Shown here piece by piece: positions 5,603 to 6,981 of a stretch of 7,042 nucleotides of DNA; within the stretch, counting starts at the first letter, position 1, and each line of letters starts with the position of its first letter. A program made the position numbers and the translations under genes. The stretch lies in IMG/VR virus record IMGVR_UViG_2636416140_000004; one strand, given 5' to 3'. Source of the DNA: a virus (lineage: Duplodnaviria > Heunggongvirae > Uroviricota > Caudoviricetes). The notes beneath the pieces were generated by a model. It was not told the DNA's origin and ran no database searches. It worked only from the letters and a program-made list of their open reading frames with translations.

Positions 5603-6202
5603 ATGGCGCATATACAACTGGTCAAACAAACCTCTTCCGGATTACTTCTCCCGGCGACGCCGGAGAGTTGCGATTTTTTGCATCAAATCAAAATAGGTGA
5701 GTGGATACACGCAGACTTTAAGCGTGTGCGTAACTACGCATTCCACAAGCGTTTTTTCAAACTCCTGCAACTGGGATTTGATTACTGGACTCCGGTCGGT
5801 GGGGCGATCACGCCTCGCGAACGAAAACTGGTATCAGGCTTCGTTGATTACCTGTGCGAATCAGTAGGTCGGGAACACACTCCAGCCCTGAGTGATGCCG
5901 CAGAGCAATACCTTAATACAGTTGCGACATGCAGAACCCGGGATACGGCATTGCTAAAGTCGTTTGACGCTTTCCGCGAGTGGGTAACCATTCAGGCCGG
6001 ATTTTACACCGAGCATATTTATCCTGATGGTAGTCGTGGGCGCAGGGCAAAATCTATCGCATTTGCGAACATGGACGAAACCGAGTTTCAGCAGGTTTAT
6101 AAATCTGTACTGAATGTGCTGTGGAACTGGATCCTGTTCCGTAAATTTTCCTCTCCGGAGGAAGTCGAAAATGTGGCCGCGCAGTTACTGGAGTTTGCGT
6201 AA
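5603..6202 (+). CDS. ydfU: Prophage nin-region protein, DUF1367/YdfU-like
   Basis: 199-aa ORF with SD GGAG; placed between rem and the Q-like gene as ydfU is in Qin-type prophages; family assignment from memory. Confidence 0.5.
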   Translation: MAHIQLVKQTSSGLLLPATPESCDFLHQIKIGEWIHADFKRVRNYAFHKRFFKLLQLGFDYWTPVGGAITPRERKLVSGFVDYLCESVGREHTPALSDAAEQYLNTVATCRTRDTALLKSFDAFREWVTIQAGFYTEHIYPDGSRGRRAKSIAFANMDETEFQQVYKSVLNVLWNWILFRKFSSPEEVENVAAQLLEFA

Positions 6203-6492
6203 TGGTGGATTTACGTAAAGCGGCGCGGGGGCAGATGTGCACCGTCAGAATTCCTGGCTACTGCAATCACAATCCCGAAACTTCTGTGCTGGCGCATTAC
6301 AGGCTGGCGGGGACGTGCGGAACAGCGACAAAACCACACGATATGCAGGCAGCGATTGCCTGTAGCTCATGCCACGATTTAATCGACGGGCGGGTAAAAA
6401 CCAGCGATTACACCAAAGAAGAATTACGCCTGATGCATGCAGAAGGTGTTTTTCGCACACAAGAAATCTGGAGAAAGGAAGGTTATTTATGA
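6202..6492 (+). CDS. ybcO: DUF1364/YbcO-like putative zinc-binding nuclease
   Basis: 96-aa ORF with N-terminal DLRKAARG...C.VRIPG.CN.NPETSVLAH and a Cys/His cluster (CGTATKPHD...IACSSCHD) matching my memory of YbcO; start overlaps the ydfU-like stop (TAATG). Confidence 0.6.
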   Translation: MVDLRKAARGQMCTVRIPGYCNHNPETSVLAHYRLAGTCGTATKPHDMQAAIACSSCHDLIDGRVKTSDYTKEELRLMHAEGVFRTQEIWRKEGYL

Positions 6493-6932
6493 TTTACCCA
6501 ACAAATACAGGCAAAAGCGGGGAACACCTTCGTCTCACCACGCTGGAAAGTGTCTGGATTCAGGGAAAACTGCGCATGTGGGGGCGCTGGTCGTATATTG
6601 GCGGCGGTAAGACGGGAAATATGTTTAACCAGTTGCTGGCATCCAAAAAATTGACGAAAACAGCCGTCAATGAAGCCCTGCGCAGGATGAAAAAAGCGGG
6701 AATAGAGAAACCTGAGCTGGAAGCGTTTTTGCGAGAGATGATCAATGGCAAGCAAAAGACCTGGCTGGCGCATTGTACTGATGCAGAGGCGTTATGTATT
6801 GATAGAGTCATAAGTGAGGTGCTGGCAGAGCATCCTGGATTGATTAGTGTCCTCCGGCAACGGTATGAAGGGCGGGGGATGACTAAGCGTAAAATGGCTG
6901 AATTGCTGAATGACGCACACCCTGAGTGGTGA
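6489..6932 (+). CDS. Short late-gene antiterminator Q-like protein, 147 aa
   Basis: ATG at 6489 overlaps the upstream TGA (ATGA) with SD AAGGAAGG; the longer frame from 6369 is rejected; position after nin-region genes and before a terminator; WGRW motif region reminiscent of the small Q family. Assignment is tentative. Confidence 0.5.
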   Translation: MIYPTNTGKSGEHLRLTTLESVWIQGKLRMWGRWSYIGGGKTGNMFNQLLASKKLTKTAVNEALRRMKKAGIEKPELEAFLREMINGKQKTWLAHCTDAEALCIDRVISEVLAEHPGLISVLRQRYEGRGMTKRKMAELLNDAHPEW

Positions 6933-6956
6933 ATAGCAGACATGGACACTTGAAAG

Positions 6957-6981
6957 AACCCGCTTTATGCGGGTTTTTTTG
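6957..6981 (+). terminator. Rho-independent terminator just downstream of the Q-like gene
   Basis: Stem CCCGC (6959..6963) / GCGGG (6969..6973), loop TTTAT, then seven T (6974..6980). Confidence 0.8.

Follow-up and report, generated by a model that had tools for sequence, protein, structure and literature searches.

Introduction

In phage lambda, the constitutive late promoter lies by the end of the Q gene in the PR'-qut-tR' cassette, the short leader RNA is terminated, and the late genes depend on read-through (bioRxiv 10.1101/651190). Q21, the antiterminator of phage 21 (162 aa; PF06530; PDB 6P18, 6P19, 6P1A and 6JNX), reads the DNA major groove with its second helix and contacts RNA polymerase with its C-terminal residues; for loading, Q21 must be bound to the DNA of the Q-binding element, by a paused complex (bioRxiv 10.1101/651190). 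In the Qin prophage of E. coli K-12, ydfU and ydfT (quuQ) are flanked by hok/rem and the lysis cassette; translated YdfU (348 aa) is a DUF968 protein (PF06147), and translated YdfT (249 aa) belongs to PF03589. Pfam keeps DUF1133 apart from Q21, in a family of its own whose function is given as unknown. A published HHpred-based annotation gives DUF1133 the same Q assignment that we reach below (PMC8136144). In the literature that we searched, DUF1133 is named in a single paper, and we found no terminator read-through assay on a DUF1133 protein and no paper mentioning Rac-SA53, one of the phages that carry one.

The window analyzed here is an entire draft contig of 7,042 bp with repeated sequences at its ends: the left one is the end of an IS1, the right one a phage tRNA region. 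Very probably, a lambdoid prophage of Shigella flexneri has decayed here, and the region under study is the right-hand stump of its early (nin) region. Homologous loci are designated by L numbers, L001 being that of E. coli VL40, and individual proteins by P numbers.

Three overlapping genes at the right end of the window

The features discussed below are as follows, in window positions.

5603..6202, + strand: DUF1367 gene, 199 aa (PF07105, 327 bits, covering 1-198 of 198)
6202..6492, + strand: ybcO-family gene for a putative nuclease, 96 aa (PF07102, 153.6 bits, covering 2-91 of 92)
6489..6932, + strand: 3'-truncated, putative antiterminator gene of the DUF1133/Q21 family, 147 codons, stop codon TGA at 6930-6932
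6931..6932, no strand: deletion junction (window 6931 = L001 10329; window 6932 = L001 11346)
6932..6956, + strand: 3' remnant of a conserved leader, defined by alignments with relatives; its 5' part and promoter-like hexamers are absent
6957..6980, + strand: predicted intrinsic terminator with a 7-bp GC-rich stem, 5-nt loop, T7 run and upstream A-run
7031..7036, + strand: -35 hexamer (TTTGCA) belonging to a promoter-like site that the contig end cuts; the -10 of the site (TATTAT) follows just past that end

The three genes lie 78 bp downstream of IS1. The product of the first also matches phrog_319, is NinB/Orf-like in PHROGs and is called 'irsA' in phage Rac-SA53. Reading of the sequence, together with the ORF list, showed that the DUF1367 stop and the ybcO start share one base (TAA/ATG, within TAATG at 6200-6204) and that the ybcO stop overlaps the DUF1133 start in ATGA at 6489-6492; a purine-rich, Shine-Dalgarno-like stretch is located 6-9 nt 5' of each of the three starts. 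Both overlaps, which had been noted in the initial annotation, are real and are retained in all the intact relatives examined (L001, L002, L003, L010 and L011).

The same annotation had named the first two genes ydfU-like and ybcO-like. The latter name agrees with the PF07102 match at 153.6 bits, but the former has to be replaced: the 199-aa protein is DUF1367, K-12 YdfU is DUF968, and the BLASTP E value is 28. Homology to K-12 YdfU and YdfT was rejected, as neither has BLASTP similarity to the window proteins, and the likeness to the Qin genes is one of position only. The third protein had been contrasted in length with the roughly 250-aa lambda-type Q of K-12 prophages; this comparison was misplaced, since YdfT represents a different, unrelated Q family (PF03589).

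Relationship of DUF1133 to Q21

The 147-aa protein matches PF06576 (DUF1133) at 310.8 bits (cut-off 23.1), but only over profile positions 1-147 of 176, while the full-length L001 protein spans positions 1-175. Judged from these matches, the window protein is a truncated member of DUF1133. It also matches PF06530 at 28.6 bits over residues 69-138 (cut-off 26), and PHROGs 753, 14465, 79 and 943, all annotated as 'anti-termination protein Q-like'. A single-sequence phmmer search of the PDB was too weak, with Q21 as its best match at an E value of only 0.013, and a family profile was required for significance: the DUF1133 profile retrieved Q21 at E 1.5e-8 (37.5 bits) in a colinear alignment of positions 94-180 to Q21 56-154. 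The Q-family search proposed in the initial annotation was thus positive with PF06530, with PHROG 753 and with the profile against Q21. A Q21-like protein, P0193, was matched directly at E 2.8e-4 in a search of 1.8 billion representatives.

The structure was predicted for the full-length relative P0001, which is 88% identical to the VL40 protein. The AlphaFold model has a pLDDT of 74 and a pTM of 0.60, and its N-terminal half is only moderately confident. When this model was compared with the PDB using Foldseek, the top 12 matches were Q21 chains and the sole hits (probability 1.0; TM 0.47-0.60 query-normalised and 0.64-0.74 target-normalised), the next match having E > 3.

DUF1133 and Q21 share the predicted all-helical fold, the N-terminal motif W..G.L..WG.W and the place of the gene at the end of the nin region, followed by a promoter-like site, a short leader, a terminator and lysis genes. 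They differ in length (180-184 aa versus 162 aa), and their identity in the structural alignment is ~19%, which makes the relationship remote. Intact DUF1133 proteins have both helices of the helix-turn-helix, with a turn of ~5 residues in place of the 17-residue B1-B2 loop by which Q21 contacts the DNA minor groove. By sequence profile and predicted fold, DUF1133 branches distantly within the Q antiterminator family of phage 21, and its members probably antiterminate.

The 147-aa protein lacks the C-terminal helix of its relatives

The same three-gene block with a DUF1133 protein of 180-184 aa is present in ~1,300 E. coli genomes, and 184-aa copies occur in L001, L002 and L003. These intact relatives extend 33-37 residues past the end of the window protein, and the extension is a confidently predicted helix in the model. 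Trp147, the last residue of the window protein, falls between helices 133-143 and 149-176 of the model, in the turn that joins them. The Q21 helices with which these two align flank the B1-B2 loop (residues 105-121). The gene in the window has therefore lost its last 37 codons, which include those for the predicted DNA-recognition helix and the C-terminal tail, and its product has no complete helix-turn(loop)-helix followed by a C-terminal tail, the second helix and the tail being deleted. On these comparisons, the 147-aa ORF is a 3'-truncated gene and no naturally short Q as initially proposed: the DUF1133 profile breaks off at 147 of 176, and the relatives are 180-184 aa long. The truncated protein is probably inactive. 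Its truncated status was already known in that NCBI names it 'DUF1133 family protein, partial [Shigella flexneri]'.

A 1,016-bp deletion ends the gene

Intact DUF1133 Q genes are found in the prophages of E. coli VL40 and APEC E19057 and in the phages Rac-SA53 and vB_EcoS-683R6. Window positions 5603-6931 are identical to VL40 (L001 9001-10329) at 1319 of 1329 positions (99.2%), i.e., over DUF1367-ybcO-Q up to codon 147, and the alignment resumes with window 6932-7042 at L001 11346. The 1,016 bp of the VL40-type ancestor that are absent from the window contain the Q 3' end, a promoter-like site, a first terminator and a gene for an ORF6N anti-repressor. The junction reads CACCCTGAGTGGTG on its left and AATAGCAGACATGG on its right, and is spanned by an imperfect microhomology (GAGTGGTG/GAGGCG). 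In the ancestor the frame goes on as ...gag tgg tgt ttc...; the corresponding codons of the window are gag tgg tga, so that the TGA stop codon at 6930-6932 was created by the junction itself. Both the shortness of the Q gene and the missing space for a PR'/qut region, which had been remarked on in the initial annotation, are explained by this deletion, in which the gene lost its 3' end and the promoter region disappeared.

The same 28-nt junction was found in five loci (L004, L005, L007, L008 and L009) from different NCBI and Logan assemblies, and 49 indexed blocks of the collection contain exactly the 147-aa protein. The contigs encoding this protein are all short, 7 kb at most, and only L005 (2.6 kb) extends beyond the window end, where it reaches the tRNA cluster. 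An exact search of 5,426 complete E. coli genomes did not retrieve the junction, nor was it found exactly among the GTDB species representatives. If the ancestor was instead of the FDAARGOS_943 type, the deletion would measure ~163 bp rather than 1,016 bp with the same consequence; the identity values favour the VL40 type.

The terminator and leader behind the junction

The terminator begins 24 nt past the stop codon and consists of AACCCGC (6957-6963), the loop (6964-6968), GCGGGTT (6969-6975) and the T7 run (6974-6980), with five G-C pairs among the 7 bp of the stem. Its predicted folding energy is -22.3 kcal/mol (z = -4.7), and none of 200 shuffled sequences was as stable. A simple consensus terminator scan of 5400-7042 did not list this hairpin, likely because the upstream A-run pairs with the T-run, which extends the stem and leaves no free T-tail. 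The hairpin is identical in L001 (~11371-11394), near-identical in L003 (~7518-7541) and also conserved in L005. By its sequence, 6957-6980 is an intrinsic (Rho-independent) terminator with predicted activity, in line with the strong terminator that had been placed right after the gene.

In the intact relatives, this terminator sits just 5' of the phage tRNA cluster. The leader in front of it runs, in intact phages, from a promoter-like site (TTGnnT-17-TGcTTCAAT) to the terminator, and the window keeps only the 3' part. Compared with the window, the intact DUF1133 copies have the same overlapping starts and stops and, on the 3' side, the same terminator and the same tRNA-cluster leader, but they also keep the Q C-terminus, the TTGACT-18-TATATT site, the first terminator and the ORF6N anti-repressor gene, all four of which are absent from the window.

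Late promoter-like sites belong to the intact relatives

A promoter scan of 5400-7042 detected no promoter-like site on the + strand, since the deletion took out the promoter region. The VL40 site is TTGACT-18-TATATT. Among the intact relatives, the promoter-like site has its -35 hexamer overlapping or abutting the Q stop codon, with a terminator within ~75-100 nt of that stop. The assignments rest on hexamer matches and position, and the consensus scan missed the -10 of module M (TTCAAT). The hexamers at the Q stop are a candidate late promoter. Inspection by eye of the relatives' leaders for a sigma-dependent pause element or Q-binding repeats revealed no convincing conserved -10-like element. 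The window has no late promoter with Q-binding and pause elements.

The gene order in the relatives is Q, promoter-like site, terminator, (ORF6N), terminator, tRNAs and holin/lysozyme/spanin. The promoter-like site in front of the tRNAs, of which the window ends within the spacer, was located by promoter scans at L001 11444-11473 and L003 7591-7620. Directly behind it in relatives lie tRNAs with the anticodons CAT (annotated Ile), TCT (Arg), TGT (Thr) and TCC (Gly), and tRNAs were found in L005, L001 and L003.

Three suggestions of the initial annotation apply here in part. A late promoter overlapping the gene end is seen in the intact relatives as a candidate, but not in the window. The idea that Q acts on this very terminator can hold for the ancestor only, in which the terminator or its homologue lies between the promoter and the lysis genes, so that Q-modified polymerase would need to read through it. 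As for lysis genes downstream, L005, which shares the junction, leads into tRNAs, and in the intact relatives the tRNAs are followed by lysis genes.

The intact relatives resemble the lambda cassette in having a predicted constitutive promoter by the Q gene end, a short terminated leader RNA and late genes dependent on read-through. They differ from lambda in their Q family and in being more compact: the terminator ends ~100 bp past the Q stop, and the -35 overlaps the stop, and the window lacks the whole promoter half.

Proposed history of the locus

In the intact phage, a Q-like protein of 184 aa would be followed by a late promoter-like site whose -35 overlaps its stop codon and by a 60-75-nt leader ending in an intrinsic terminator, and Q-modified RNA polymerase would pass the terminator(s) into the tRNA, lysis and structural genes. 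In the lineage of the window, 1,016 bp lying between short imperfect repeats were deleted. Q thereby lost its last 37 codons, and the candidate promoter, the first terminator and the gene for the ORF6N anti-repressor disappeared as well; the stump became joined to the tail of a second leader just 5' of its terminator, with the TGA arising at the joint. We are confident that the short Q followed by an immediate terminator is a deletion scar of prophage decay. The Q switch of this S. flexneri prophage is most likely dead, because the recognition helix is missing and so are a cognate promoter and a Q-binding site. Some binding to RNA polymerase may persist, as the protein retains the N-terminal 80% of the fold.

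A real deletion could also have left a working protein, which might, for instance, bind the RNA-exit channel of RNA polymerase untargeted or disturb the Q proteins of superinfecting or co-resident phages. Residues 1-147 keep the regions aligned with the polymerase contacts of Q21 (the N-terminal helix and the 'torus' linkers), and the ORF, which shares 99% identity with intact copies, is retained in many isolates. However, such identity reflects no more than a recent deletion, Q21 has to be loaded as a DNA-bound protein at the Q-binding element by a paused complex (bioRxiv 10.1101/651190) and the recognition helix is gone, and expression is doubtful since the early promoters and the immunity region are lost and IS1 lies 78 bp upstream. 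We consider a functional stump very unlikely. Similarly improbable is the wider proposal that DUF1133 is a fourth Q flavour, with a short-turn helix-turn-helix and a recognition helix swapped together with the stop-overlapping promoter, whose stump would be untargeted or dominant-negative against related phages.

A naturally short, complete Q, with a promoter overlapping the 3' end of its gene or with the terminator 25 bp downstream as its target, would fit the open frame, its good ribosome-binding site and coupling to ybcO, the detectable Q-family similarity, and the layout of the intact relatives, in which the -35 overlaps the Q stop and a terminator follows within ~75-100 nt. This reading is nonetheless even harder to sustain: the frame stops exactly where colinearity with a 99%-identical relative breaks, the Pfam profile is covered only to 147 of 176, every intact relative has 33-37 more residues forming a confidently predicted helix, 5400-7042 holds no + strand promoter-like site, and NCBI marks the protein as partial. 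Least probable of all is an assembly artefact, i.e., a chimeric or collapsed short-read contig from a genome with the full-length gene, which the repeated contig ends (IS1 left, phage tRNA region right) and the shortness of all contigs with the 147-aa protein might suggest, but which is contradicted by the recurrence of the identical 28-nt junction at five loci, which come from different assemblies and runs of sequencing, by the exact protein in 49 collection blocks and by the position of the junction in unique sequence, not in a repeat.

Significance of the scar and of DUF1133

The biological weight of the deletion scar is small, as it adds one more cryptic Shigella prophage that has most likely lost its late-gene switch; with that switch lost, lysis and structural genes cannot be expressed through Q. 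It cautions that intact relatives should be compared before odd gene lengths or regulatory spacings are called new designs. For DUF1133, listed by Pfam as of unknown function, the sequence-profile and fold evidence adds support for membership in the Q21 antiterminator family, and the layout of its genes is very compact, with the promoter-like site overlapping the Q stop codon.

As a separate observation, VL40/E19057, FDAARGOS_943 and 683R6/Rac-SA53 have different Q C-termini, which are paired with different downstream promoter spacers.

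Truncation of the DUF1133 gene

The window is the entire draft contig ANAN01000163.1 (assembly GCA_000815945.1; 7,042 bp), in which three overlapping ORFs are followed by an intrinsic terminator. Going by the names that the identical 147-aa protein carries, the source is Shigella flexneri.

Three-gene block and terminator in the window
5603-6202, + strand: ORF of 199 aa, DUF1367 (Pfam, 327 bits, full length)
6202-6492, + strand: ORF of 96 aa, YbcO (Pfam, 153.6 bits)
6489-6932, + strand: ORF of 147 aa, DUF1133 (Pfam, 310.8 bits, profile positions 1-147 of 176 only)
6957-6980, + strand: intrinsic terminator (stem 6957-6963/6969-6975, 5-nt loop, seven T residues at 6974-6980), beginning 24 nt past the stop of the Q-like gene

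The overlaps TAATG (6200-6204) and ATGA (6489-6492) reported in the initial annotation are read directly and are kept in all intact relatives fetched; the packing of the ORFs is a conserved tight operon arrangement. Lambdoid phages usually have such tightly packed operons in their nin region. The third gene had been called Q-like, a family guess that was right in kind. PHROGs places the 147-aa protein in phrog_753, 'anti-termination protein Q-like', with 223 bits. Its match to PF06530 ('Phage antitermination protein Q') is marginal (28.6 bits, cut-off 26). Two other names were mistaken. The first gene had been labeled ydfU-like, but K-12 YdfU (348 aa translated) belongs to DUF968 and is not similar to the 199-aa window protein (E = 28), which is 'NinB/Orf' in PHROGs; the 250-aa K-12 Q used for comparison with the third gene is YdfT, a member of another Q family (PF03589) unrelated to the window proteins. 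The strong terminator close behind the Q-like gene is real as a sequence feature, both on reading and by predicted RNA folding (-22.3 kcal/mol, z = -4.7 versus shuffles). A consensus terminator scan of 5400-7042 did not list the hairpin at 6957-6980, likely because the upstream A-run pairs with the T-run, which extends the stem and leaves no free T-tail.

The deletion junction

When window 5603-7042 was searched by megablast against 5,426 complete E. coli genomes, the three-gene block was present in 1,392 of them, and most matches ended at query position 1329 (window 6931), inside the stop codon, at its central base. The whole query was covered in few matches, always as two pieces. The best match came from the E. 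coli VL40 prophage (L001), whose DUF1133 gene spans 555 nt (9887-10441) and encodes 184 aa. Window 5603-6931 corresponds to L001 9001-10329 (1319/1329 identical) and window 6932-7042 picks up at L001 11346; the window therefore lacks 1,016 bp. At the joint, the ancestral frame (...gag tgg tgt ttc cgg...) has become ...gag tgg tga ata, and the TGA stop of the 147-codon gene is a by-product of this joint. The imperfect microhomology GAG(T)GG(T/C)G is common to both break points. Truncation by deletion has made the 147-codon gene a pseudogene, one that belongs to an annotated family and is carried by a cryptic prophage; the identical protein already bears the NCBI name 'DUF1133 family protein, partial [Shigella flexneri]'.

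An assembly error at the junction is ruled out by the recurrence of the same 28-nt junction string in five loci that come from separate assemblies and sequencing runs, and of the exact 147-aa protein, indexed in 49 blocks of the sequence collection. The 28-nt string was found neither among the 5,426 complete E. coli genomes nor among GTDB representatives. Separately, the database protein P0137 has a DUF1367 N-terminus (MAHIQLV...) joined to a DUF1133 C-terminal half; a further deletion or fusion in the three-gene block of some genome, or else a mis-assembly there, is the probable origin.

The putative late cassette in intact relatives

Elements of the VL40 prophage (L001) missing from the window
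Last 37 codons of the gene: 3′ end of the Q-like gene
10438-10467: promoter-like site TTGACT-18-TATATT (10/12 matches), whose -35 hexamer includes the TGA stop of the Q gene
10528-10548: intrinsic terminator, preceded by a leader of ~60-75 nt with hairpins
10711-11274: ORF6N-domain anti-repressor gene

Past the anti-repressor gene lies a conserved module, TTGCAT-17-TGcTTCAAT followed by GCTTCGCAAAGCTGTATCGCGAGGCG, AATAGCAG... and a terminator. The right end of the deletion falls inside this module, of which the window keeps the last 25 nt and the terminator. In the FDAARGOS_943 prophage (L003) and phage vB_EcoS-683R6 (L011), the same module directly follows the Q stop, with the -35 hexamer again at the stop codon; the surviving terminator is the sole and first one after Q in FDAARGOS_943-type phages and the second in VL40-type ones. 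All five aligned Q-downstream regions share the layout of Q stop, promoter-like hexamers, ~60-75-nt leader and hairpin with T-run. After the terminator, relatives carry a promoter-like site, a four-tRNA cluster and then holin, lysozyme and spanin genes, except that phage Rac-SA53 (L010) has a toxin operon before the holins. L005, a contig that shares the junction, has the tRNA cluster downstream of the window sequence.

These comparisons bear on the spacing puzzle of the initial annotation, which saw no room for PR′/qut before the terminator. The observation is correct but does not reflect a design, since the space is missing because that region was deleted. A late promoter overlapping the 3′ end of the gene, as had been proposed, partly fits the intact ancestor type, in which a promoter-like site overlaps the gene end, but not the window, where the site is deleted. 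The other proposal, that Q acts on this terminator itself, partly suits the ancestor, in which Q-modified polymerase would pass it to the tRNA and lysis genes.

VL40-type prophages have two tandem promoter-like/leader/terminator cassettes, one right after Q (L001 10438-10548) and the other after the ORF6N anti-repressor gene (11286-11345), the second being homologous to the cassette adjoining Q in other phages. The arrangement looks like the result of an insertion of the anti-repressor gene that separated Q from an older late-promoter cassette. Between the terminator and the tRNA cluster, directly before the latter, is promoter-like TTTGCA-18-TATTAT (L001 11444-11473; L003 7591-7620), of which the window keeps 7031-7036, the remainder lying beyond the contig end. 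The tRNA anticodons are CAT (annotated Ile), Arg-TCT, Thr-TGT and Gly-TCC or Val-TAC, and expression of the phage tRNAs might not require Q.

DUF1133 and the Q21 antiterminator

The best PDB match of a full-length DUF1133 member was the phage-21 antiterminator Q21, a weak one (E 0.013). HMMER against 1.84 billion representatives gave a small family of 76 clusters, including many fragments and the Q21-like protein P0193. A 16-sequence DUF1133 profile matched Q21 colinearly (E 1.5e-8; 14-40 to Q21 6-34, 94-180 to Q21 56-154). When the 184-aa relative P0001 was modelled with AlphaFold (pLDDT 74; C-terminal half >85), twelve Q21 chains were the only meaningful Foldseek matches (TM 0.47-0.60 by query, 0.64-0.74 by target; next E > 3). 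A published annotation based on HHpred (PMC8136144) reaches the same assignment. The sequence matches, the Foldseek matches of the predicted fold and synteny together give good support to the predicted placement of DUF1133 in the Q21 lineage. Q21 has a 17-residue B1-B2 loop (105-121) touching the minor groove, whereas DUF1133 has a ~5-residue turn (...HPEW...) there. The intact family appears to form a branch of the Q21 fold in which the HTH has a short turn and the cassette of promoter, leader and terminator is very compact.

The last 35-37 residues of the Q protein, the predicted DNA-recognition helix, vary among five loci of intact DUF1133-Q phages, and each helix variant is paired with a different promoter-like spacer, the groups being VL40/E19057, FDAARGOS_943 and 683R6/Rac-SA53 (sites compared: L001 10400-10470, L003 7425-7470, L011 3530-3575, L010 4530-4575). 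683R6 and Rac-SA53 have near-identical helices and similar spacers, TTGATT-tttacgca-aaac; VL40 and the APEC E19057 prophage have another helix with TTGACT-18-TATATT. The pairing seen in these five loci suggests exchange of Q specificity together with its promoter, as one module.

The record PP818812.1 ('Actinobacillus phage vB_Apl-pPE4'), attributed to Actinobacillus pleuropneumoniae, contains a DUF1133 Q 94% identical to the VL40 copy with the same downstream module, which is surprising in a Pasteurellaceae host; it may be an E. coli prophage or contamination.

Consequences of the truncation

The protein breaks off after W147, exactly within the short turn of DUF1133, and the lost helix (residues 149-176, pLDDT ~90 in the P0001 model) aligns with the second helix of the Q21 helix-turn(loop)-helix. 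In Q21, the second HTH helix contacts bases in the major groove of DNA, and C-terminal residues also dock on RNA polymerase (bioRxiv 10.1101/651190). With helix 149-176 lost, the window protein has no putative DNA-targeting helix left, and its would-be target DNA is missing as well. We infer that the late switch in the window is dead.

Decay elsewhere in the remnant

The remainder of the window is consistent with advanced decay.

Other features of the window
~1367-2600, - strand: IS600-type IS3-family element (orfA 2221-2523, orfB 1367-2185)
3942-4266: hok/mok/sok toxin-antitoxin locus (Rfam sok, 118 bits, 3942-4116; mok/hok ORF 4054-4266, Pfam HOK_GEF)
4757-5524, 768 bp: complete IS1 (insA/insB on - strand; inverted repeats 4757-4779 and 5502-5524)

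The IS600-type element cuts a LysR-family regulator gene (region 888-2600) after 160 codons and joins chromosomal DNA directly to mid-prophage, the first prophage gene here beginning at 2626. The window has none of the integrase, immunity and replication genes present in L001. The complete IS1 sits within a 71-bp intergenic space, 78 bp upstream of the DUF1367 gene, and probably separates the three-gene operon from upstream transcription. A second IS1 terminal repeat (9-31, - strand) abuts the end of an alpha/beta-hydrolase ORF (31-750, - strand), and the left boundary of the contig is IS1. The hok/mok/sok locus appears intact within the prophage remnant.
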